From: Candidatus Limnocylindria bacterium
GTDB lineage: Bacteria; Chloroflexota; Limnocylindria; Limnocylindrales; CSP1-4
DNA: 61,851 nt
NCBI GenBank assembly: GCA_035637675.1
Contig: DASPWU010000004.1
Coordinates: 1 to 61,851, forward strand
Direction: 5' to 3'
The notes below the pieces were generated by a model, which saw only the letters and a list, made by a program, of their open reading frames with translations, was not told the origin of the DNA and ran no database searches. Shown piece after piece: positions 7,120 through 17,815 of the stretch (positions are counted from its first letter, which is position 1; each line of letters begins with the position of its first letter). The translations under genes and the position numbers were made by a program.

Positions 7120-7194
7120 CGCGGGGTGGAGCAGCGGCAGCTCGTCGGGCTCATAACCCGAAGGTCGGAGGTTCGAATCCTTCCCCCGCAACCA
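7120..7194 (+). tRNA. initiator tRNA-Met (anticodon CAU), CCA encoded
   Basis: CGCGGGG...CCCCGCA acceptor with a C1xA72 mismatch. The anticodon stem has three consecutive G-C pairs (TCGGG/CCCGA), loop CTCATAA, T arm GGAGG-TTCGAAT-CCTTC. These are the bacterial initiator hallmarks. Confidence 0.9.
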
Positions 7195-7209: not shown

Positions 7210-7244
7210 GAACCCCGGCCCCGACCAGCCGGGGTTCTTCCTTG
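7210..7244. terminator. bidirectional intrinsic terminator-like hairpin
   Basis: GAACCCCGGC-cccgacca-GCCGGGGTTC is a 10-bp GC-rich stem followed by TTCCTTG. It lies between the tRNA-fMet 3' end and the stop of the convergent ABC-2 permease gene. Confidence 0.5.
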
Positions 7245-7249
7245 TCCGG

Positions 7250-8041
7250 CTACTCCCAGCGGAACATTCGGGCGGCGAGGCCGGCCAGGACAACCCCCCA
7301 GGCCGCCAGCAATGCCACCGCTGCGGTTGGATCGCCGGCCATCGTGCCGAGCCCGATCCGGAAGGCGTCGGACAGCGCGGCCGCCGGCAGCACCCCCGCG
7401 AGGTCGGCCACGGGCTGCGGCAGGCGGTCCAGGGGCACGATGACCCCGCCCAGGAGGAGCAACAGCAGGTAGAGGCCGTTCGCGCTGGCCAGGGTGGCCT
7501 CGGCCCGGAGCGTCCCGGCCATGAGAAGGCCGAGGCCGGCGAAGGCCAGCGTCCCCAGCAGCAGCGCCACGGCCACGACGAACGCCGAGGCACCCGCGCC
7601 GGGCGCCCATCCGAAGAGGGCGACCGCGATTGCCACCAGAACGACGAGCTGCAGTAACTCGACCGCGACGACCGCGGCGATCTTGGCCGCGACGAGTCCC
7701 CAGCGGGGCAGCGGCGATCCGCCCAGACGCTTGAGCACGCCGTAGGCGCGCTCGTAGCCGGTCGCGATCCCCAGGCTCACGAGGCTCGTCGAGATCACGG
7801 CCAGGGCGGCGACGCCCGGCAGCAGGAAGTCGATCGGCCGGCCGGTCCCCGTCGGCAGGACGTCCACGGAGCCGAAGAAGACGAGAAGGGCGACGGGGAT
7901 CACCAGCGTGACGAGCAGGTTCTCGGCTCGGCGCGACGTCAGCCGCAGCTCCATCGAGGCCTGGGCGAGCGTGGCTCGCCAGGCTGGAGCAGCGCCCGTG
8001 GCGGCGGGCGTCCAGCGCGCCGGCGTCGAGCTCTCGCTCAC
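7250..8041 (-). CDS. ABC-2 type transporter permease
   Basis: 263 aa from GTG 8041 with six hydrophobic helices, as in ABC-2 (DrrB/NosY-type) permeases. The GTG overlaps the TGA of the upstream ATPase gene (GTGA). Confidence 0.75.
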   Translation of the reverse strand: MSESSTPARWTPAATGAAPAWRATLAQASMELRLTSRRAENLLVTLVIPVALLVFFGSVDVLPTGTGRPIDFLLPGVAALAVISTSLVSLGIATGYERAYGVLKRLGGSPLPRWGLVAAKIAAVVAVELLQLVVLVAIAVALFGWAPGAGASAFVVAVALLLGTLAFAGLGLLMAGTLRAEATLASANGLYLLLLLLGGVIVPLDRLPQPVADLAGVLPAAALSDAFRIGLGTMAGDPTAAVALLAAWGVVLAGLAARMFRWE

Positions 8042-9045
8042 GGCATGTGCCCGCCCTCGCGCTCTTCCTGGCTCTCCGCCGAGCCTTCGGACGCCTTCTC
8101 CGCCAGGAGCTCCAGGTAGCGCTCCTCGAGCGTCCCGCCCCCCGTCGTCACCTCCACAACGAGCAGCTGGCGGGACTCGCACCAGGTCGCCAGTCGGCTG
8201 ACGAGCCCGGGCGCCGGGCTCACGCCGTCGAGGCGATAGTGGCCCCCGCCCTCGTCGACCAGATCCGTGCCGGGCGCGCCGTCCGACAGCCGCTCCGCAA
8301 GCGCATGGCGCTCCGCGTGCGACAGGGGAGCCTCCAGTCGGAATCGAAAGCGCGGCGCGGCGGCGGCCGTCAGCTCGGCGGGGGAGGCGAGCGCGATGAG
8401 CCGGCCCGAATCGATGAACGCGACGCGGTCGGCCAGCCTGTCGACGTCGGCCAGGTCGTGGGTCGTGAGCAGCACCGTGACCCCGGCTACGCGAAGCTCG
8501 CCGATGAGCTGGCGAGTGGCGACCTTGGCCGCCGGGTCCATGCCCGTCGTCGGTTCGTCGAGGACGACCAGCTCCGGTCGCCCGACCAGGGCCAGGGCCA
8601 GCCCGAGGCGCTGCTTCTCCCCGCCCGACAGGACCTTGTAGCGCGTGCCGGCGACGTCTCGGAGGCCGACGACGTCGAGCAGCTCATCGGGGGCGTGCGG
8701 AGCTGCGTAGAAGCTGGCGAACAGCCGCAGGATCTCGGCCGGCGTGGCCTGTGGGTAGACGCCACCGGCCTGGAGCATGAGTCCCAGCCGGGCGCGCAGG
8801 CTGGGCGCGTCGCGGGCCGGGTCCAGGCCGAGCACGCGAACGTCACCGGCGTCCGCCCGGCGGTAGCCCTCGATGATCTCCACCGTCGTGGTCTTGCCGG
8901 CGCCATTGGGGCCGAGAAGCCCGAAGATCTCTCCGCGCCGGACCTCGAACGACAGGCGGGCGACGACGTCCCGGCCGGCATATCGCTTGACCAGGCCGCG
9001 GAGGGCGATCGCAATCTCGGTGGTGTCGGACGGGTTGTCGGTCAT
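8038..9045 (-). CDS. ABC transporter ATP-binding protein (DrrA-like, with C-terminal extension)
   Basis: Walker A GPNGAGKTT, signature LSGGEKQRL, Walker B LVVLDEPTTGMD and H-loop TTHD. There is an extra domain of about 100 aa at the C-terminus. The ATG overlaps the stop of the thioredoxin gene (ATGA). Confidence 0.9.
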   Translation of the reverse strand: MTDNPSDTTEIAIALRGLVKRYAGRDVVARLSFEVRRGEIFGLLGPNGAGKTTTVEIIEGYRRADAGDVRVLGLDPARDAPSLRARLGLMLQAGGVYPQATPAEILRLFASFYAAPHAPDELLDVVGLRDVAGTRYKVLSGGEKQRLGLALALVGRPELVVLDEPTTGMDPAAKVATRQLIGELRVAGVTVLLTTHDLADVDRLADRVAFIDSGRLIALASPAELTAAAAPRFRFRLEAPLSHAERHALAERLSDGAPGTDLVDEGGGHYRLDGVSPAPGLVSRLATWCESRQLLVVEVTTGGGTLEERYLELLAEKASEGSAESQEEREGGHMP

Positions 9046-9485
9046 CCGCCGATGGCTGCGTACTGGCGCTCGAAGTCCGCGGCCGTCAGCTCGCCGATCT
9101 GGCGTGACCGGACGATGCCGTCGCGGTCGATGAAATAGGTCTGCGGCGGGGCGAGGACGGTATACACGCTGGCCCGTGAGCCGTCCGGGTCGGTGAGGGA
9201 TGGCCAGGCGGCACCCTCGGTGGCCGCGAACCGGCGGGCCGCGCCCGCGTCGTCATCGAAGACCACTCCCAGGATCGCGAGGCTCGGATGCCGGGCCTGG
9301 GCGTCCCGGAAGAGCGGAAACTCGGCCCGACACGGGACGCACCAGCTGGCCCAGAAGTTCACGATCACCGGTTTGCCCCGCAGGTTCGCCAGGCTCATCG
9401 ACCGTCCATCGAGCGTGGTCCCGCTCAGTGGTGGCGCCTGATCGCCGACGCGGACGCCGACCGGGCTCGGCGGGGTCACGCCCAC
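9042..9485 (-). CDS. TlpA/ResA-like thiol:disulfide oxidoreductase (thioredoxin fold)
   Basis: Has the WASWCVPCRAEFP CxxC motif. Coordinates are the minimal GTG-started ORF. The same frame upstream (to 9617) encodes a signal-anchor helix, RFDRRQLIGLAIIATIAIIAIVAV, with no ATG/GTG/TTG, so the true start is probably further upstream and non-canonical. Confidence 0.75.
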   Translation of the reverse strand: MGVTPPSPVGVRVGDQAPPLSGTTLDGRSMSLANLRGKPVIVNFWASWCVPCRAEFPLFRDAQARHPSLAILGVVFDDDAGAARRFAATEGAAWPSLTDPDGSRASVYTVLAPPQTYFIDRDGIVRSRQIGELTAADFERQYAAIGG

Positions 9486-9617
9486 GGCGACGATGGCGAT
9501 GATGGCAATCGTCGCGATGATCGCCAGGCCGATGAGCTGGCGCCGGTCGAACCTGCTGTCGGACGTCCGATCGAGCCGGCCGGGCGAGTCGGGTGAAGGG
9601 GTCGTGATGAACCTGCG

Positions 9618-10745
9618 CTACTTGAGCGTGATCGTGCCGGTCATGTTCGCGTGCACCGTGCAGACGAACGGATACTGCCCAGCCGGCAGCGCCGGCACCT
9701 GGTAGACGCGGGTCGCCACGCCGTTGAAGATCTCGCCCCGGAATGCCTCGCTGCCGTCCGCCTTCCTGATCGCCACGTCGTGAGGCGTGCCCTGGTCCTG
9801 GTTCTCGAACGCTATCGTGAACGGCTTGCCGGCCGGCCCGGTCACGTCCGCGGTGGTGAACGCGATGGCCTGCGCGACGATCGTGACGTCGGCCGCCGGC
9901 TTGCCCGCGGGCGGGGAGCCCGGCGCCCCCGATGCTCCCGCGGAAGCCGCGGGGCCCGACCCACTAGCCTCGCCCGGTGCGGGCGACCCGATCGCGGCGC
10001 CGGCACTGCCGGCGCTGCCTTTGGGCGGCAGGATGCCGGCCTGCAGGATCGCCGCGCCGACGATGACGATCGTGAACAGCGCGAACGTTCGCAGCGGGAA
10101 ACCCGGCGCCGGCGGGTTGCGCAGGTGGCCCGTCCGGTCGGCCTCCTCCGTCAGACGGTACTCGAGGCGGGCCGCGCGCCACCAGCCCACGAGCGCGATG
10201 ACGAGGCAGATGAACCCGGCCAGGATCATCCAGCCGCCCACGACGAGACCGGCCAGCAGGACCGCCACGCCGACGGCCGAGGTGAACGGCAGGAAGGTGG
10301 GGCCCGGGACGTGGACGCCCGGCGGCGGACCGCCGTGCTCGACCGTAATGGCCATCGTCCCGGAGCCGGCCACGTGCTCGTATTCGTGCATCCCTTCGCG
10401 CAGCCAGTACAGCAGCGCAAGAACGAGCGCTGCAACACCCAGGAGGGCGCCGGCCGGCCCGACCACCAGGCCGAACAGCACCAGCGCCGTCCCGGCTGCG
10501 CCGAAGAACGGCGCGAACGAGGGCCCTGGAGCGTGGACCCCCGGCGGCGCCACGGACACTCGCCGTCCGAACCCGCGCTGGCGCGGGCCGACGCGGGTGT
10601 ACGCCCAGACGAGCCAGACGAGCCACAGCACGACCGAAGCCAGCAGGGCGATCGGGATCAGCCCGACCAGGGCCCCCCAGTCGGGGATGACGAGCTTGGC
10701 CGTCAGGTCCAGGAACGCGTTCCAGAGCTGCTGCAGCTTCTCCAT
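9618..10745 (-). CDS. polytopic membrane protein: duplicated CtaF-like (oxidase subunit IV C-half-like) module fused to a C-terminal type-1 cupredoxin domain
   Basis: 375 aa. An internal repeat of PPGVH-x-PGP-S/T-F-x-PF plus two TM helices ending in EY covers about nt 10371-10550 and 10149-10331. A sixth TM helix and a G/S/A/P-rich linker follow. The 91-aa C-terminal domain (9621-9893) has ligands H (TPHDV) and C-x2-H-x2-M (FVCTVHANM). Confidence 0.8.
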   Translation of the reverse strand: MEKLQQLWNAFLDLTAKLVIPDWGALVGLIPIALLASVVLWLVWLVWAYTRVGPRQRGFGRRVSVAPPGVHAPGPSFAPFFGAAGTALVLFGLVVGPAGALLGVAALVLALLYWLREGMHEYEHVAGSGTMAITVEHGGPPPGVHVPGPTFLPFTSAVGVAVLLAGLVVGGWMILAGFICLVIALVGWWRAARLEYRLTEEADRTGHLRNPPAPGFPLRTFALFTIVIVGAAILQAGILPPKGSAGSAGAAIGSPAPGEASGSGPAASAGASGAPGSPPAGKPAADVTIVAQAIAFTTADVTGPAGKPFTIAFENQDQGTPHDVAIRKADGSEAFRGEIFNGVATRVYQVPALPAGQYPFVCTVHANMTGTITLK

Positions 10746-10775
10746 CGGCGATGTTGTCGCTGTCCCGCCGAGTGC

Positions 10776-10952
10776 CTAGACGTCGTCCGGCGTGCCGACG
10801 ACGAGGGCATACGCGGCCAGCCCCATCGCGATCCCCAGGGCAGCCAGGGTCGTCGTGCCGCCCGCATCACCGCTCAGGATGAAGTAGACGATGGCGATTA
10901 CGACGAACACTCCCCCAACCGCGAACGCGTTTCTGGGGTGCTTGAACCGCAT
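10776..10952 (-). CDS. small 2-TM oxidase-associated subunit (resembles the N-terminal half of actinobacterial CtaF/subunit IV)
   Basis: This ORF is not in the supplied track because it is under 60 aa. My translation is MRFKHPRNAFAVGGVFVVIAIVYFILSGDAGGTTTLAALGIAMGLAAYALVVGTPDDV, 58 aa. The ATG lies 9 nt after the ctaE stop and the stop lies 30 nt before the next gene. Confidence 0.6.
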   Translation of the reverse strand: MRFKHPRNAFAVGGVFVVIAIVYFILSGDAGGTTTLAALGIAMGLAAYALVVGTPDDV

Positions 10953-10961
10953 GTCGGTCGC

Positions 10962-11591
10962 CTACCTCGAGGGGATGATGTAGAGGATCGAGAACAGGGC
11001 GATCCAGACGACGTCCACGAAGTGCCAGTAGATGGACGTTGCCTCGACGGCGTCGTGATGGCGGGAGGTGAACTGGCCGCTCATCGCCCGGAAGAGCACG
11101 ACGCTGAGCATGATCACGCCGCCCAGGACGTGCGCGCCGTGGAACCCGGTGAGGGTGAAGAACGTGGTTCCGAACGTGCCGTCGGAGAGGCCGAACCCGA
11201 GCTGGCTGTAGTCGTAGGCCTGGCCGATGAGGAACGTGACGCCCATCACAAGGGTGACGGCGATCGCCCGGATCAGGCCGCGACGATCGTCCCGTCGGAT
11301 CGCCCACACGCCCAGCTGGCAGGTGAATGAGCTCGACACGAGGATGATGGTGAGGACGGCCGCCAGCCAGGGCTCGGCGTGCAGGTTGAAGCGCTCGGCC
11401 AGGTGCTCGCCCACCTCGGCAGCCGACGGCGGCCAGGTCGGCGCCGTGGCCCGCACGTTGAAGTAGGCCGCGAAGAGTCCGGCGAAGAACATCACCTCCG
11501 AGCAAATGAACAGGATCATCCCCAGGATCGGGTTGCTGATCCCGTGACGGGGCAGGTCGGCCAGGGCCCCATCGTGCGCCGTCTGGGGCAT
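10962..11591 (-). CDS. ctaE: cytochrome c oxidase subunit III
   Basis: 209 aa from ATG 11591 (MPQTAHDG...). Blocks GMILFICSEVMFFAGLFAAYF, FFTLTGFHGAHVLGG and YWHFVDVVWI are typical of Cox3. It starts 14 nt after the ctaD stop. Confidence 0.9.
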   Translation of the reverse strand: MPQTAHDGALADLPRHGISNPILGMILFICSEVMFFAGLFAAYFNVRATAPTWPPSAAEVGEHLAERFNLHAEPWLAAVLTIILVSSSFTCQLGVWAIRRDDRRGLIRAIAVTLVMGVTFLIGQAYDYSQLGFGLSDGTFGTTFFTLTGFHGAHVLGGVIMLSVVLFRAMSGQFTSRHHDAVEATSIYWHFVDVVWIALFSILYIIPSR

Positions 11592-11605
11592 GACGGTGGA
11601 CGCGC

Positions 11606-13237
11606 TCACGAGTGGCCGCCGTGGCCGCCCGTCCGGCCATGCCGGGCGTCGAACACCGGACGCTCGGACCTGATCTCCGGCAGATGGTCGAAGTTGTAGG
11701 GCGGCGGCGGTGAGCTGGTTGCCCACTCCAGGGTGTTGCCCTCCCACGGGTCGTCGCCGGCCGGCTCACCGTTCCGCAGCGAGATGAGGACGTTCCACAG
11801 GAACGGCAGGGTGGAGGCGGCGATGATGATGCTGCCGACCGTCGCCACGAGGTTGAGCTGGTTCCAGCCCGCGGTCGACGCGTAGGTCGCGATCCGGCGG
11901 GGCATCCCCTCCAGGCCCAGGATGTGCATCGGAAAGAAGGTCATGTTGAACCCGATGAGCATGAGCACGAAATGAATCTTGCCGAGCGTCTCGTTGAGCA
12001 TTCGACCGCTCATCTTGGGGAACCAGTAGTAGACGCCAGCGAATACGCCGAAGACGGAGCCGCCGAACAGGACGTAATGGAGGTGAGCCACGACCCAGTA
12101 CGTGTCGTGGAGGGCGAAGTCCACCGGCACGGCGGAACTGAAGGCGCCGTTGATGCCGCCGATCAGGAACATCGTCAGGAAGCCCAGGGCGAACAGGAGC
12201 GGCGTCGAGAACGTCAGCTGGCCGCGGAAGAGCGTGGCGATCCAGTTGAACATCTTGACCCCGGTTGGCACCGCGATCAGGAACGTCATGAAGCTGAAGA
12301 ACGGCAGGTAGACCGTCCCGGTCGTGAACATGTGGTGGGCCCAGACCGAGAACCCCAGGGCCCCGATGCCGGCCGTCGCGAACACGAAAGCCTTGTACCC
12401 GAACAGCGGCTTGCGTGAGAAGACGGGCAGGACCTCGCTGACAATGCCCATTGCGATGAGGATCATGATGTAGACGGCCGGGTGGGAGTAGAACCAGAAG
12501 ATGTTCTGCCATAGGACGGCGTTGCCGCCGGTCGCCGGATCGAAGAAGTGGCCGCCGTAGTTCCGGTCGATGAACAGCATGATGAGCGCGCTCGCCAGGA
12601 CCGGCGTGGCTAGGAGCACGAGGACGCTGGTCACGAGCGCGGTCCACACGAGGATGGGCATCCGGAACATCGTCATGCCCGGAGCGCGCATCTTGAATAT
12701 CGTGACGAGGAAGTTGATCGAGCCAAGGATGGAGCTCGTCCCGATGAGCGTCACCGCCACGAGCCACAGGTCCGTCCCCACGCCTGAGTACTTCGACTGG
12801 GCCAGCGGGCTGTAGCTCGTCCAGCCCTCCGCGGCCGCGCCGCCGGGGACGAGGAAGCCGGCCAGGATGATGATCCCGGCCAGGGGCAACATCCAGAACG
12901 ACAGCGCGTTGATCCGTGGGAAGGCCATGTCCGGCGCCCCGATCTGGAGTGGCACGACGTAGTTCGCGAAACCGGCCAGGATCGGGATGATGAACAGGAA
13001 GAGCATGAGCGAGGCATGCATCGTGAACAGCTGGTTGTAGAGATCCGGGGAGAACAGCTTGTTCTCCGGCACGGCCAGCTGGCTGCGAACGCCAAGCGCA
13101 AGGACGCCGCCGATGAAGAAGAACACGAACGAGTTGACGAGGTACAGGATCCCGATCTTCTTGTGGTCGGTGGTGGTGACCCACTCGTAGAGCGCGCTCC
13201 GATAGGTGGCGGCAGGCGTCAGCGCGGTGGTCGCCAT
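11606..13237 (-). CDS. ctaD: cytochrome c oxidase subunit I (A-type haem-copper oxidase)
   Basis: 543 aa. Blocks include HKKIGILYL, WFYSHPAVYIMIL (CuB His with cross-link Tyr), VWAHHMFTTG and HDTYWVVAHLHYV. AAGGAG lies upstream of the ATG. Confidence 0.95.
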   Translation of the reverse strand: MATTALTPAATYRSALYEWVTTTDHKKIGILYLVNSFVFFFIGGVLALGVRSQLAVPENKLFSPDLYNQLFTMHASLMLFLFIIPILAGFANYVVPLQIGAPDMAFPRINALSFWMLPLAGIIILAGFLVPGGAAAEGWTSYSPLAQSKYSGVGTDLWLVAVTLIGTSSILGSINFLVTIFKMRAPGMTMFRMPILVWTALVTSVLVLLATPVLASALIMLFIDRNYGGHFFDPATGGNAVLWQNIFWFYSHPAVYIMILIAMGIVSEVLPVFSRKPLFGYKAFVFATAGIGALGFSVWAHHMFTTGTVYLPFFSFMTFLIAVPTGVKMFNWIATLFRGQLTFSTPLLFALGFLTMFLIGGINGAFSSAVPVDFALHDTYWVVAHLHYVLFGGSVFGVFAGVYYWFPKMSGRMLNETLGKIHFVLMLIGFNMTFFPMHILGLEGMPRRIATYASTAGWNQLNLVATVGSIIIAASTLPFLWNVLISLRNGEPAGDDPWEGNTLEWATSSPPPPYNFDHLPEIRSERPVFDARHGRTGGHGGHS

Positions 13238-13247
13238 CGAATGCTCC

Positions 13248-14396
13248 TTACTTCACCGTGAGCGTGCCCGTCATCGACGGGTGGACCGTGCACACGAATG
13301 GGTACGAGCCGGTCTTGAGAGCCGGCACGTTGTAGGTCGCGTCGGCGGGGCCGGTGATGAGTTCGCCCTTGAACGCCACGCTGCCGTCCGGATTCTTGAT
13401 CTCGACGTCGTGCTGGGTTGCGTTGTCCTTGTTGGTGAAGTGGATCTGGAACGGCTTCTCGGCCGGCGCTTCGAGGGTGGCCTTGTCGAACGCGATGTTC
13501 TGGGCCGCGAGCTCCAGGACGGCGCCGGCGGGTGGGCTGCCAGGCGGTGGGCTTCCGGCGGGTGCGCTGCCGGCCGGCGGGCTCGCGGCCGGAGGAGGCG
13601 ACTTCTTGGCCTCCTCGATCTGCTGCTTGAGCCAGGCGTCGTACTCCGCCCGGGTGACCGCCTTGACCTCGAACGTCATGCCACCATGCCCCGCCCCGCA
13701 CAGCTCGGCGCACTGGCCGCGGAACGTCTGTTCTGCATCGCCCGCGTCGACGGTGAAGTCGAAGTTGTTCTCTTTGTTGGGGTCGGTCACGGGGTTGACG
13801 TCGCGCTTGAACAGGAACTTCGGCACGTAGAAGGCGTGAATGACGTCCACGCTGTGGAGCGTGACGTGGATCGGCTCGCCGACCGGAACGACCATCGTCC
13901 CGAAGACGCCATGTCCCTGCGCGTCGGTCGTGAAGAGCGGCGTCTTTCCGTCATCGCTGAGATAGGCGAAGCTCCAGGCGAACCGCTCGGCGACAGCCCT
14001 GACCCGGACGCCCGGGTGATCGCTCTTGGCCTCGACCGCGTTCAGCGTCTGCCACGAGACGACGAACAGGTACAGGACGATGATCGTAGGGATGATGGTC
14101 CAGATGATCTCGACCAGGTTGTTGCCGTGTGTCTGAGGGGGCAGGTCGGCATCGTCGGGCTTGCGCCGGTAGCGAACGACCGCGTAGATGATGGCGCCCT
14201 CGACGGCCAGGAAGATGAGGACCGCGAGGACGAACACGATGTCGTACAGGGACGAGACTTCCGCGCCCTGGGACGTCGATGCGCTTGGCGGGTAGAGCTG
14301 TGGGAACTGGGAGGCGCATCCCGCCGCCACAAGAGCCAACAGCAGCGAGGCCACGATTGCCGCGGGGCGCGTCCGCTTGTTCCTCTTGATCGGCAT
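13248..14396 (-). CDS. ctaC: cytochrome c oxidase subunit II with C-terminal amicyanin-like cupredoxin domain
   Basis: 382 aa: lipoprotein-like signal (LLALVAAGC), two TM helices and a CuA centre (H...CAELCGAGHGGM). A 28-aa P/A/S/G linker (about 13524-13607) follows. The 91-aa cupredoxin domain (13251-13523) has TQHDV and FVCTVHPSM (C-x2-H-x2-M). Confidence 0.9.
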   Translation of the reverse strand: MPIKRNKRTRPAAIVASLLLALVAAGCASQFPQLYPPSASTSQGAEVSSLYDIVFVLAVLIFLAVEGAIIYAVVRYRRKPDDADLPPQTHGNNLVEIIWTIIPTIIVLYLFVVSWQTLNAVEAKSDHPGVRVRAVAERFAWSFAYLSDDGKTPLFTTDAQGHGVFGTMVVPVGEPIHVTLHSVDVIHAFYVPKFLFKRDVNPVTDPNKENNFDFTVDAGDAEQTFRGQCAELCGAGHGGMTFEVKAVTRAEYDAWLKQQIEEAKKSPPPAASPPAGSAPAGSPPPGSPPAGAVLELAAQNIAFDKATLEAPAEKPFQIHFTNKDNATQHDVEIKNPDGSVAFKGELITGPADATYNVPALKTGSYPFVCTVHPSMTGTLTVK

Positions 14397-14572: not shown

Positions 14573-14710
14573 GACGCCGCGGTCGCGTGGCAGGTTCGTA
14601 GCGGAGCGCGCCGCGGTCGCGTGGCAGGTGCGTAGCGGAGGGCGCCTCGGTTCCGTGACAGGATGGGCGGCGGAGGGCGCCTCGGTTCCGTGGCAGGATG
14701 GGCGACGATG
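14573..14710. repeat. four-unit tandem array (34/34/35/35 bp) in the ctaC / ctaG divergent region
   Basis: Units start at 14573, 14607, 14641 and 14676. Units 1/2 differ at 3 positions and units 3/4 at 4. All four share the core CGTG(G/A)CAGG at a 34-35 bp period. The array ends on the ATG at 14708. Confidence 0.9.
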
Positions 14711-15832
14711 ATGGCTCGCCGACCTGTCCGTAGCCGGTTTGCCGGCCGCCGGTTCGCCGTCCGCCGGTTCGCCAGGCGCTGGTTTCGGCGGCCGGCGGCG
14801 CACATCGCCGCCGGACTCGTTCTCGCCATAGGCGTCCTCGGCGGTCTCGCGCCGCCGGTGCTTGCCCACGGGGCGAACGCGCTCCTCCCGCCGGCCCCGT
14901 CCGACTTCCTCTTCGACTGGGCGTTCGATGGCCTCGTGACGATTCCGCTCCTGCTGGTCGGCGCCGCCTACCTGTGGGCGGTCGGACGGGTCGATGCGGC
15001 GCACCCGGGAAACAGGGTGCCCCGCTCGCGGATCGTCGCGTTCCTGGCAGGCCTGGCCGTCATCGAGATCGCCCTCCAGTCGATCATCGAGCGCTACGAC
15101 ACGACGCTGTTCTCGGTCCATATGGTCCAGCACATCCTGCTCACGCTGGTTGCGCCGCCACTCCTCGCGCTCGGCGCCCCGATCACGCTCGCGTTGCGCG
15201 TCGCCCGGCCCGAGTTCCGACGCCGCGTCGCCCTGCCGATCCTGCACAGCCGGTTGCTCCGATTCCTGACGTTCCCGGTGGTGGCCTGGCTGCTCTTCGC
15301 CAGCGTCATGTGGGGCACCCACTTCTCGCCCATCTTCAACGAGTCGCTCGAGCAGCCTCTCGTCCACCAGCTCGAGCACCTCGCGTACCTCGTCGCCGGG
15401 CTGCTGTTCTGGTGGCCGGTCGTTGGCGTCGACCCCAGCCCCTGGCGGATCCCGAATCCGGTCCGGGCCATGTACCTGTTCCTGCAGATGCCCCAGAACA
15501 CGTTCCTCGCCCTGGCTATCTACAGTGCCGCCGCTCCGCTCTATCCGCATTACGCAGCGATTCGCATCCGATGGGGGCCCGACCCGCTGATGGATCAGCA
15601 GATCGCGGGCGGCCTCATGTGGATCGTCGGGGATGTCGTCTTCATCGTGGCGATCGTTCTCACCGTCGTCGGGTGGATGCGGTCCGAAGAGCGGGAGGCG
15701 CTGGGGCGCGAGCGCCGCGAGGATGCCCAGATCGCCGCAATCCGCGCCCGGGAAGCCGCCCTGGCGGACAGGCTGGCCGCCGAGCGGCTGGGCGAGGATC
15801 GGGCCGGCGACGAGCGGATCGGAGGGCCGTAG
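14708..15832 (+). CDS. cytochrome c oxidase assembly factor, Caa3_CtaG family membrane protein
   Basis: Polytopic protein with LFSVHMVQHILLTLVAPPLLALGAPITLALR and FLQMPQNTFLALAIY, as in Bacillus-type CtaG (copper insertion). Transcribed divergently from the oxidase operon. The start could be ATG 14708/14711 or the track's ATG 14663. Confidence 0.8.
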   Translation: MMARRPVRSRFAGRRFAVRRFARRWFRRPAAHIAAGLVLAIGVLGGLAPPVLAHGANALLPPAPSDFLFDWAFDGLVTIPLLLVGAAYLWAVGRVDAAHPGNRVPRSRIVAFLAGLAVIEIALQSIIERYDTTLFSVHMVQHILLTLVAPPLLALGAPITLALRVARPEFRRRVALPILHSRLLRFLTFPVVAWLLFASVMWGTHFSPIFNESLEQPLVHQLEHLAYLVAGLLFWWPVVGVDPSPWRIPNPVRAMYLFLQMPQNTFLALAIYSAAAPLYPHYAAIRIRWGPDPLMDQQIAGGLMWIVGDVVFIVAIVLTVVGWMRSEEREALGRERREDAQIAAIRAREAALADRLAAERLGEDRAGDERIGGP

Positions 15833-15851: not shown

Positions 15852-16913
15852 TCAGCCCGGGATCGGGGCCTGGAGGTATGACCGGTAGCGCTCCGGGTCC
15901 ACGTTCCCGCCGCTGACGATCGCCACGACCGGCCCGTCGATGCCATCCAGGCCTACCTCGCGGAGGTGAAATCGCATGGCCGCCAGGGCGAGGGCTCCGG
16001 ACGGCTCGGCCACGAGCCGGGCCTCCTCGGCCGCCAGCCGGACGGCGGCCGCAATCTCGGCCTCTGTCACGGTCACGATCCGATCGACCAGGGCCGACAG
16101 GTGGGCGAACGTCCGCCGGCCCAGCGACTGCGTCCGGGTGCCGTCGGAAATCGTCCGGATCACCAGCTCGGCCGGCCAGGCCACGATTCGACCCGCCGCC
16201 AGCGACTCCCGAGCATCGGCCGCCAGCTCGGGCTCGACGCCGATGATCCGCGCCGACGGTCGCACGCCTCGGACCGCGGCGGCCACGCCCGACGCCAGGC
16301 CGCCACCCCCGACCGGCACGAGCACGGCGGCGACATCCGGCAGGTCCTCGATGATCTCCAGACCGCAGGTCCCCTGGCCGGCGATGATTCGATCGTCATC
16401 GAAGGGCGGGATGACCGCCAGGCCGTGCTCCGCGGCCAGACCCTCGGCGACGGTGCGGCGCTCGTCGCTCGCGGGGCCCACCGTGATCACCTCCGCACCG
16501 TCGGCGACGACGCGACGGACCTTGAGCGGTGGTGCGTCGGAGGGCATGACCACGACCGCGGGGGCTCCCAGCAGCCGCGCGGCCCGCGCCACGCCCTGCG
16601 CGTGGTTGCCCGAGGAGTAAGTGATCACGCCACGAGCTCGCTCTGCGGGGCTGAGCGACGCGACGGCCACGTAAGCGCCGCGGAGCTTGAACGCGCCGAT
16701 CGGCTGGAGCGACTCGGCCTTGAGGAATCGATGCTCGCCGCTCGGCCCGAAGGGAACGAGCGGCGTTCTCAATGTGATTCCCTGCAGGATGGTCGCGGCA
16801 TCACGAATCGCTTCTAGGCCGACGAGGCCGGGTCCGAGGATGTCGGGGAGGCCGACCGGGTCGAGAGGGACTGGCTCGGGGCCGCCCGACGGGATGGCCG
16901 TTCGGTCAGCCAC
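15852..16913 (-). CDS. threonine ammonia-lyase / threonine dehydratase (PLP fold-type II)
   Basis: PLP lysine in ESLQPIGAFKLRGAY, plus SSGNHAQGVA and a glycine loop PVGGGGLASG. The proposed GTG 16913 overlaps the upstream stop by 8 nt (GTGGCTGA). The track start at 17051 lies inside the upstream gene. Confidence 0.8.
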   Translation of the reverse strand: MADRTAIPSGGPEPVPLDPVGLPDILGPGLVGLEAIRDAATILQGITLRTPLVPFGPSGEHRFLKAESLQPIGAFKLRGAYVAVASLSPAERARGVITYSSGNHAQGVARAARLLGAPAVVVMPSDAPPLKVRRVVADGAEVITVGPASDERRTVAEGLAAEHGLAVIPPFDDDRIIAGQGTCGLEIIEDLPDVAAVLVPVGGGGLASGVAAAVRGVRPSARIIGVEPELAADARESLAAGRIVAWPAELVIRTISDGTRTQSLGRRTFAHLSALVDRIVTVTEAEIAAAVRLAAEEARLVAEPSGALALAAMRFHLREVGLDGIDGPVVAIVSGGNVDPERYRSYLQAPIPG

Positions 16914-17307
16914 GGCCCTGTGCGATGAGCCTGGCGCAGTCGATGCAATGCTCTGCCCAGGGCAGGGCTTCCAGGCGTTCTGGCGCGATTGCCTTGCCGC
17001 ATCGCAGGCAGCGCCCGAACGTTCCCGCGTTGAGCCGGACCAGCGCCGCATCCACCAGCGCGAGCTGTTGCACCGCGCGCTCGCGAAGGGCGAGATCGCG
17101 TTGCTGCTCGAACACGTGACTGGCGGCCGCCGCCTGTGAGCCGTAGGTCATCTGCCCGGGCGGCTGAATGGTCGCCGCCAGCTCGTCGCGGAGCCGGACG
17201 CGCTCAGCCTCGAGCGCGGCTCGCGGGTCGGTCGCGCGGTCCGCTGCCGGGTTGGGGCCAGCGCCGGTTGCGGAGTCGGCCGAGCGCTCGGCCGATGAAG
17301 GATCCAT
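16906..17307 (-). CDS. TraR/DksA-family C4 zinc-finger protein
   Basis: 133 aa from ATG 17307. A coiled-coil-like middle is followed by the C-terminal CLRCGKAIAPERLEALPWAEHCIDC (CxxC-x17-CxxC). Confidence 0.75.
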   Translation of the reverse strand: MDPSSAERSADSATGAGPNPAADRATDPRAALEAERVRLRDELAATIQPPGQMTYGSQAAAASHVFEQQRDLALRERAVQQLALVDAALVRLNAGTFGRCLRCGKAIAPERLEALPWAEHCIDCARLIAQGRG

Positions 17308-17815
17308 GACGCGAGATGGTACGCGTCCCGTGCTCGACGCGGGCGCGGGGGTCATGGCCGGCGAGTTGAGCCGCGTTTCGGCCCGCCTGGTAGGCAGCGG
17401 CGCAGTCGGAGCATTGTCATGAGCAATGCTTTGAGGACGCTCGCCGATGGCGCCGCGCGGCTCCGGCAGCCTCGAGATGGCTCGGCCGGCCTCTGGCCCT
17501 TGCCGTATTCCGAGCATTGTTATGAGGACGCCAACGGCGGGCCGAAGGCCGCCCTGGGTGCTCATGCTCGTACGACGTACGCACGGGCCGAGCTCGCCGG
17601 GGTGTTGAACGATGCGGGCGATGGCGTGGAGGACGCCTTTGCCGCGCCGAAGGCCTCTCCGTAAGCATGCTCGGAATATGTCGACGTGCTATCCGCCCCA
17701 CGACCGCGGCCGTCGCGGGTCCGATAAGCCGCAGCTAAGCGGTGACGAGCAAACTGATCCAACGAGCCACCGGCGTCACCCGGCGACCGGGCTCGCAGTC
17801 GGGGCACGTTGGAGG

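Follow-up and report, generated by a model that had tools for sequence, protein, structure and literature searches.

The closest described counterparts to our ATP-binding cassette (ABC) transporter are probably those of mycobacteria. In Mycobacterium tuberculosis, the genes Rv1459c-Rv1456c are translationally coupled and conserved in the Corynebacterineae, with Rv1458c encoding the ATPase and Rv1457c an ABC-2 permease, for which a function as a lipoglycan flippase has been proposed (PMC2440535). Other reports label Rv1456c-58c a (three-gene) drug efflux pump (PMC8829022, PMC7761784, PMC6300501), which is reported to be conserved in all mycobacteria including M. leprae and of which the disruption causes a growth defect (PMC7761784, PMC6300501). 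In a 2026 study, rv1457c and rv1458c still appear among the genes of unknown function, and one screen found oleate sensitivity in transposon mutants of both as well as in ndh and etfD mutants (PMC13279779). As for the thioredoxin encoded beside the transporter described here, both CoxB and Sco are reduced by TlpA (PMC9145763, citing Abicht 2014). We analyzed a window of 61,851 nucleotides (nt) from Candidatus Limnocylindria bacterium (contig DASPWU010000004.1), in which an ABC ATPase and an ABC-2 permease are the last two genes of an eight-gene unit on the minus strand. This unit, at positions 7250-14396, forms the principal operon for an A-family haem-copper oxidase in this Chloroflexota bacterium of the class Limnocylindria. 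The window has a G+C content of approximately 70%, and the homologues of its proteins carry names of Candidatus Limnocylindrales, phylum Chloroflexota.

A previous sequence-only reading of the operon suggested that the ABC pair is dedicated to the copper centres encoded upstream of it. The tie between the pair and the oxidase was borne out beyond this genome, including orthologues in another phylum, whereas a dedicated role in copper-centre maturation was not. We consider it about an even bet (a probability of roughly 0.5), judging from sequence and gene neighbourhood, that the exporter serves as a conserved accessory in the assembly of the actinobacterial-type oxidase, with haem O or haem A as the likeliest cargo. 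A role in oxidase biogenesis is suggested because the pair occupies a coupled position in the operon and because its relatives have an independent ctaA/ctaB/tlpA/ctaG-cox neighbourhood in another phylum. The more specific proposal, that the pair represents a new class of haem-copper oxidase assembly factors in Actinomycetota and Chloroflexota, using ATP to move or release farnesylated haem O/A at the membrane so that it can be inserted into subunit I, is put forward only tentatively.

Conservation of the exporter beside oxidase-biogenesis genes

The block found in the window recurs in 22 Limnocylindria-type loci, which are all those extending upstream of the ABC pair. Eighteen loci were reached from the permease, two of which (L010 and L016) begin inside the block at a contig end, and four more from the CtaF-cupredoxin protein. 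The conserved order is divergent ctaG, ctaC-cupredoxin, ctaD, ctaE, a small open reading frame (ORF), CtaF-cupredoxin, tlpA, ATPase, and permease, with permease identities to the window as low as 56%. In the three Limnocylindria-type loci where the block is missing, the contig breaks off at the ABC pair. Beyond the permease the genes vary, with a tRNA and a major facilitator superfamily gene in the window, and LiaF/PspC, ABATE, GCV_T, sigma factors, or an aminotransferase elsewhere. Since these downstream genes differ between loci, the permease marks the limit of the block, which is kept together as a unit. The synteny claimed by the sequence-only reading thus extends well beyond this genome. 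The four-nucleotide overlaps are also kept, between tlpA and the ATPase gene in 17 of 19 loci and between the ATPase and permease genes in 15 of 19; the loci lacking them look like frameshifted assemblies. We also observed fused gene calls of 429 residues (tlpA plus ATPase) and 562 residues (ATPase plus permease) (L085 8068-9357, L087 8637-10325), as well as several representatives of 570-650 residues with the permease at the C-terminus (P0133, P0183, P0191). Such fused calls may be frameshift errors at the overlaps or real fusions.

An exhaustive HMMER search with the permease gave 245 representative clusters at E <= 1e-30, and a genome scan with a 10-sequence alignment, using one genome per species, gave at least 597 relatives. 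Besides Chloroflexota, the best 80 of these comprise Streptomyces, Kitasatospora, Frankia, Actinomadura, Streptosporangiaceae, and Acidimicrobiia, whose permeases are 52-57% identical, which is high for an ABC-2 permease across phyla. The ATPase is 42-51% identical to the copies in Streptomyces, Frankia, and Actinomadura. We tallied oxidase-biogenesis genes within 10 kb of the pair by tblastn. The cox-tlpA block was counted at 18 of 21 Limnocylindria-type loci, and ctaA and/or ctaB at 44 of 47 loci in Actinomycetes, where ctaA often lies 0-140 nt downstream on the same strand. Seven of eight loci from Acidimicrobiia or unclassified Actinomycetota have tlpA, ctaB, ctaA, or ctaG-cox genes: four with a convergent tlpA-like gene 20-43 nt past the permease, followed by ctaB in three; two with ctaG, coxIII, and coxI beside the pair, the longer of which also has coxII and ctaB; and one with ctaB and ctaA. 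The pair is therefore found beside oxidase-biogenesis genes in at least four arrangements in two phyla, namely cox-tlpA-ABC, ABC-ctaA(-ctaB), ABC facing tlpA-ctaB, and ABC facing ctaG-coxIII-coxI-coxII. The window pair is most closely related to Actinomycetota copies that lie next to ctaA/ctaB, which places it with the ctaA-linked family.

On a complete Streptomyces chromosome, sufD, sufB, and an ArsR/SufR-like regulator gene lie upstream of the ATPase gene, all on the opposite strand. The ATPase and permease genes are followed by one ORF with a sub-threshold TPR match, COX15-CtaA, and then an amidohydrolase-family gene and a UbiA-family haem O synthase gene, both on the opposite strand. Wherever Streptomyces loci have enough flanking sequence, the best match is always the copy between sufR/sufBD and ctaA, and in Frankia ctaA begins 44 nt after the permease. 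It is this matching sufR/sufBD-ctaA context, together with the literature, that makes Rv1458c and Rv1457c the probable counterparts of the window pair (PMC2440535, PMC4745158). The placement of Rv1456c in oxidative phosphorylation by KEGG (PMC4745158) fits the COX15-CtaA gene at the same position in Streptomyces and Frankia.

No cupredoxin-fused oxidase gene was found by tblastn within 10 kb in the loci of Streptomyces, Frankia, Actinomadura, or Acidimicrobiia, where the commonest neighbour of the family is the haem A synthase gene ctaA. The co-occurrence of the pair with cupredoxin-fused oxidases holds for the Limnocylindria-type loci but not, within 10 kb, for these actinobacterial ones.

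The frequent proximity of tlpA raises another possibility, namely that the pair exports a low-molecular-weight thiol or reductant, keeping the TlpA-type thioredoxin and the outer-face cysteines reduced in the manner of CydDC. The tlpA/ATPase overlap and the tlpA genes next to the permease in the four Acidimicrobiia/unclassified loci would suit such a function. CcdA/DsbD, the usual electron donor, was also not seen in the operon or the other scanned window ORFs, although CcdA could be encoded elsewhere in the genome. However, no tlpA was found nearby in 44 Actinomycetes loci, and the DrrAB/ABCA type V class to which the exporter is closest (see below) is known for hydrophobic or lipid-linked cargo, not for small soluble thiols. 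We therefore regard thiol export as very doubtful.

Transporter class and candidate cargo

With an ABC_tran ATPase and a six-helix ABC2_membrane permease both scoring above the Pfam cut-offs, the pair belongs to the ABC-2/type V exporters. The best NCBIfam model of the ATPase is drrA (TIGR01188, 200 bits vs a cut-off of 312), and that of the permease is of the DrrB family (TIGR00025, 78.5 vs 147 bits; TIGR01247, 42 vs 223 bits), so that DrrAB is the best-matching subfamily by sequence without the pair qualifying as a member. Among solved structures, the ATPase with its C-terminal extension is closest to the nucleotide-binding domains of ABCA7, ABCA3, ABCA4, and ABCA1 (E 1e-60 to 1e-48), followed by NosF (1.7e-40) and Rv1218c. 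The AlphaFold (AF2) model of the permease has a mean confidence (pLDDT) of 92. In a Foldseek search, it matched ABCH-9C in complex with ceramide and KpsM with template-modelling (TM) scores of 0.64-0.72, as well as Wzm, TarG, and ABCG; of these, ABCH, KpsM, and Wzm are lipid/glycolipid exporters. NosY matched at TM scores of 0.50-0.58 and a root-mean-square deviation of about 7 Å, and CcmB was not among the top 50 fold matches. Among 30 family members, the ABC2_membrane/ABC2_membrane_3 profiles match 29-30, the NosY-type profile 13 weakly, and the CcmB profile two weakly. For the window permease itself, the match to the NosY family PF12679 is not significant (E 0.51), and there is no match to PF03379 (CcmB).

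The window permease contains neither histidine nor cysteine, its model has no periplasmic domain, and none of the columns conserved in the alignment of the 30 family members is His, Cys, or Met. The operon and the other scanned window ORFs yielded no NosD/NosL-like or Sco/PCuAC gene. Both sequence and model thus suggest a DrrAB/ABCA-like type V exporter that is neither NosFY nor CcmAB. The placement with NosY or CcmB, on which a copper-centre role would have leaned, gave way to one with DrrB/ABC2_membrane drug/lipid-type exporters; this placement and the conserved synteny point in opposite ways.

These features bear directly on the proposal of a NosFY-like device dedicated to maturing CuA and the two blue-copper domains of the cupredoxin-fused oxidase. 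One operon does combine three copper proteins with a TlpA-type thioredoxin, with ctaG next door, and ctaG lies 23-657 nt from the permease in two actinobacterial loci; NosF is near the ATPase, and NosY appears among the fold matches. On the other hand, the orthologues stand beside ctaA/ctaB where no cupredoxin-fused oxidase gene is near, the permease belongs with ABC2_membrane (7e-19) rather than PF12679, it has no periplasmic domain, His, or Cys, and the Nos-type and Sco/PCuAC partners were not found. Altogether, a dedicated copper function appears improbable.

The class assignment would equally suit a housekeeping exporter of lipids, envelope components, or drugs, whose adjacency to the oxidase genes reflects aerobic co-expression or an inherited order without any direct role in assembly. 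Besides the best matches to DrrA/DrrB-type proteins, ABCA lipid transporters, and lipid/glycolipid exporters, this view is in line with the mycobacterial literature on drug efflux, mycolate or lipomannan/lipoarabinomannan (LM/LAM) export, and oleate sensitivity (PMC8829022, PMC2440535, PMC6656915, PMC13279779). Moreover, none of the eight loci from Ktedonobacteria or other Chloroflexota showed oxidase-biogenesis genes; their neighbours are unrelated (HSP20, MOSC, GNAT, hydrolase), and scanning these neighbours for hidden oxidase genes found none. It is more difficult to reconcile with the four arrangements in two phyla and with the translational coupling within the Limnocylindria oxidase operon, beyond which the genes vary. 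Streptomyces, Acidimicrobiia, and Chloroflexota are not known to make mycolate or LM/LAM, and these cargoes cannot explain why the family is conserved there. We consider the housekeeping explanation rather unlikely, while giving it more weight than copper maturation or thiol export.

For the favoured reading, an accessory role in oxidase assembly, haem O/A is the preferred cargo because ctaA and ctaB recur most widely across lineages and the permease has no metal ligands. Haem O and haem A carry a farnesyl group, which also favours them as substrates, since type V exporters of the DrrAB/ABCA clade handle hydrophobic, membrane-embedded, or lipid-linked cargo. The pair is probably a homodimeric half-transporter in which two copies of the ATPase join two copies of the six-helix permease. 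Driven by ATP hydrolysis, it would shift a hydrophobic molecule embedded in the membrane, or release it, towards the external side of the membrane; following the logic of CcmAB, this could be the farnesylated haem passed between CtaB, CtaA, and subunit I. The adjacent thioredoxin, CcmG-like or TlpA-like, would act on extracytoplasmic cysteines, i.e., at the CuA site and possibly in the loops of CtaA.

Several points weigh against an assembly role and its presumed cargo. The cargo is purely conjectural, and no member of the family is known from experiment to affect oxidase activity. No ctaA or ctaB was found among the scanned window ORFs, so haem A is only a presumed cofactor of this oxidase. 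Well-studied organisms such as Bacillus and Paracoccus are not known to use a transporter of this kind in the assembly of their aa3 oxidases. The pair stands amid unrelated genes in all eight loci of Ktedonobacteria and other Chloroflexota, and its linkage to the oxidase is thus not universal. The ABC-ctaA linkage within Actinomycetes could be one inherited arrangement without repeated selection. The equivalence of Rv1457c/Rv1458c is presumed from gene context and literature. Finally, a 2022 review of bacterial oxidase assembly factors names no ABC transporter (PMC9145763).

Our literature searches found no paper proposing a role in oxidase assembly for this ABC family, nor any on Rv1456c with haem A synthase or on Limnocylindria with cytochrome c oxidase; searching by locus tag gave only unrelated papers, and cluster look-ups yielded no useful named Mycobacterium member. 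The claim that the linkage is new must be qualified: the actinobacterial ABC-ctaA cluster itself can be seen in published genome sequences, and other hypotheses on the mycobacterial genes have been discussed. The probable mycobacterial members are needed for normal growth, yet they are labelled as drug-efflux, lipoglycan-export, or unknown-function genes (PMC7761784, PMC6656915, PMC13279779). A haem-handling role, if true, would explain why Rv1457c/Rv1458c are needed for normal growth of M. tuberculosis, and work on this candidate tuberculosis target may shift from efflux to respiration. The cross-phylum neighbourhood provides a concrete hypothesis that is testable in tractable model actinobacteria, among them C. 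glutamicum, M. smegmatis, and S. coelicolor.

Organization of the operon and its oxidase

Domains were called with Pfam and NCBIfam profiles, which confirmed the gene order and domain identities of the eight genes and the divergent Caa3_CtaG gene (Table 1). All eight minus-strand ORFs have a coding-like codon bias, with a G+C content at third codon positions of 0.85-0.93.

Table 1. Features of the oxidase operon and its flanks in the window
Feature	Position	Strand	Evidence or remark
ctaG, Caa3_CtaG-type CuB insertion factor	14663..15832	+ (divergent)	PF09678, E 4e-79
ctaC, CoxII with C-terminal Cupredoxin_1	13248..14396	-	COX2_TM 1e-15, COX2 1e-10, Cupredoxin_1 1e-11
ctaD, subunit I	11606..13237	-	PF00115, E 9e-163
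ctaE, subunit III, ATG at 11591	10962..11591	-	PF00510, E 3.5e-41
58-residue two-helix membrane ORF	10776..10952	-	conserved position in relatives
CtaF-like protein with cupredoxin, 375 residues	9618..10745	-	Cupredoxin_1 5.6e-10, Cyt_c_ox_IV 5.5e-4 (below Pfam cut-off)
TlpA/ResA/CcmG-type thioredoxin, WCVPC	9042..9617	-	AhpC-TSA 1.4e-22, Redoxin 2.3e-19
ABC ATPase, DrrA/ABCA class	8038..9045	-	ABC_tran (PF00005) 5e-26, 92 bits
ABC-2 (type V) permease	7250..8041	-	ABC2_membrane (PF01061) 7e-19, 68.6 bits
GC-rich hairpin, operon end	7210..7237		between permease stop and convergent tRNA-Met (7120-7194)
Blue-copper C-terminus of subunit II	13248-13550		amicyanin-like, FVCTVHPSM
Blue-copper C-terminus of CtaF-like subunit	9618-9900		amicyanin-like, FVCTVHANM
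Membrane part of CtaF-like protein	9900-10745		internal duplication
34-nt tandem repeat	14575-14704		3.6 copies, 87% matches; ctaG-ctaC divergent region into 5' end of ctaG ORF
15-nt repeat	14733-14798		4.3 copies; encodes RRFA-like N-terminus of ctaG ORF
Pyridoxal phosphate (PLP) enzyme/DksA-TraR pair	15852-17051, 16906-17565

The gaps along the operon are 10, 14 (ctaD/ctaE), 9, and 30 nt, followed by two four-nucleotide overlaps, ATGA between the tlpA stop and the ATG of the ATPase gene and GTGA between the ATPase stop and the GTG of the permease gene, exactly as had been claimed. The short gaps and overlaps support a translationally coupled unit. A consensus scan of the minus strand found no promoter-like site, and the sole terminator-like match (13019-13003) lies inside the ctaD coding sequence. 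The hairpin predicted after the permease is present (10 base pairs, eight of them GC), but its T-rich tail is on the plus strand, i.e., on the tRNA side, while an A-rich stretch follows it on the operon strand, so that as an intrinsic terminator of the operon it would be atypical. Because it lies behind the convergent tRNA-Met, the hairpin may well be a terminator that is shared or works in both directions. An Rfam scan of the region gave only the tRNA. An identical public permease is annotated from an internal ATG (234 residues, MELRL...) instead of the GTG at 8041 (263 residues); we favour the longer form because of the homologue alignments and the conserved four-nucleotide overlap.

The thioredoxin fold, the CxxC motif (WCVPC), and the N-terminal transmembrane helix identify the tlpA product as a thiol-disulfide oxidoreductase of the TlpA/ResA/CcmG family, even though the specific models score below their cut-offs (TlpA NF047696, 50 vs 230 bits; ResA NF002854, 82 vs 170 bits; the DsbE subfamily likewise). 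As noted previously, the frame opens directly after the upstream TAG and encodes the membrane anchor; however, the first ATG, GTG, or TTG in it is the GTG at 9485, past the anchor, and the start codon may therefore be non-canonical. We compared the tlpA starts of the window, L002, L005-L008, L010-L012, L028, L057, and L069, and the anchor has no upstream ATG, GTG, or TTG in the window and most orthologues. Immediately 5' of a conserved P-R-R-P-I-L motif there is an ATG in L069, an ACG takes the same or corresponding position in nine other loci, and canonical starts occur a few codons on in L057 (TTG) and L010 (GTG). This sequence pattern suggests that translation starts or restarts at a near-cognate codon right after the upstream stop. 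Readthrough from the CtaF-cupredoxin gene, which is in the same frame as tlpA in the window, was rejected as a conserved mechanism since the frame relation varies among orthologues and since a fusion would also put the thioredoxin on the wrong side of the membrane.

Subunit I belongs to the CtaD/CoxA equivalog (TIGR02891, 721.5 bits; cut-off 670.75) and subunit II to CoxB (TIGR02866, 157.2 bits; cut-off 147.7). The actinobacterial aa3 models NF050116/7/9 score best, all below their cut-offs (741/880, 196/250, and 172/190 bits), and the oxidase is by sequence nearest to the actinobacterial aa3 kind without being a member. Calling the oxidase "aa3" is an assumption; its sequence does not reveal the haem type. 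The CuA ligands are found in the translation of subunit II as H...CAELCGAGHGGM, with the pattern H...CxExCx3Hx2M, and the translations of both cupredoxin domains carry the type-1 copper signature H...Cx2Hx2M. These amicyanin-like domains form the C-termini of the CtaF-like subunit and of subunit II, and none of the operon proteins showed a c-type cytochrome domain. Where other enzymes have a cytochrome c domain, this oxidase thus seems to have two type-1 copper domains of its own for electron entry.

PF12270 matches are precomputed for many homologues of the CtaF-like protein. Its membrane part consists of two modules, each with PPGVH(A/V)PGP(S/T)F.PF followed by two hydrophobic helices, and a low-complexity linker connects these repeat modules with the second type-1 copper domain. 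The 58-residue protein has no Pfam or NCBIfam match; its counterparts in relatives, 43-69% identical and annotated as genes of 58-69 residues, occupy the equivalent position, and it is likely a small oxidase subunit. The locus provides an example, from an abundant soil/freshwater lineage, of an oxidase type that has two blue-copper domains built in, and of an oxidase operon in which a type V ABC exporter is embedded.

The 34-nt repeat between ctaG and ctaC may be a regulatory array. Because the N-terminal part of the ctaG ORF consists of tandem repeats, its true start is probably downstream of 14663. In relatives, genes for a YHS-domain mini-protein (46-56 residues, CGM...FC; L001 777-947, L085 428-598, L086 549-689, L087 229-399, L088 1-117), a DksA/TraR zinc finger, and a PLP enzyme lie upstream of ctaG; the window retains the PLP enzyme/DksA-TraR pair, whereas the YHS gene is absent.

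Comparison with known systems

Like caa3 oxidases, the Limnocylindria oxidase has a subunit II with an extra C-terminal redox domain, which is cytochrome c in the former but amicyanin-like blue copper (Cx2Hx2M) here, with a second copy on the CtaF-like subunit. The thioredoxin resembles Bradyrhizobium TlpA and Bacillus ResA as a membrane-anchored thioredoxin fold with WCxPC encoded together with an oxidase, and is TlpA-like by sequence while scoring below the specific models. NosDFY(L) is likewise an ABC-2 system encoded with a multicopper respiratory enzyme, and NosF and NosY are recognizable relatives; the window pair differs in having no NosD/NosL and no periplasmic docking domain, and its orthologues are not tied to copper enzymes, which sets it outside this system. 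CcmAB with CcmG (System I) also brings together a TlpA-like thioredoxin with an ABC ATPase and its ABC-2-type permease, encoded with a haem-protein pathway, and is a possible model for the ATP-driven release of a haem intermediate; with no CcmB match of the permease and no ccmC, ccmD, or ccmE found, the window pair is not a CcmAB system.

DrrAB (daunorubicin/phthiocerol dimycocerosate) and the ABCA lipid transporters share with the pair the best-scoring models, the alignment of the ABCA-type nucleotide-binding domains, and the type V fold, but the scores are below the cut-offs and the context in the window is respiratory, not one of antibiotic or lipid biosynthesis. The nearest system is the actinobacterial ctaA-linked ABC pair, which is of the same family, with the same ATPase-then-permease order and with oxidase-biogenesis genes as neighbours. 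Whereas that pair is flanked by sufR and ctaA, the window pair follows the cox structural genes and tlpA.

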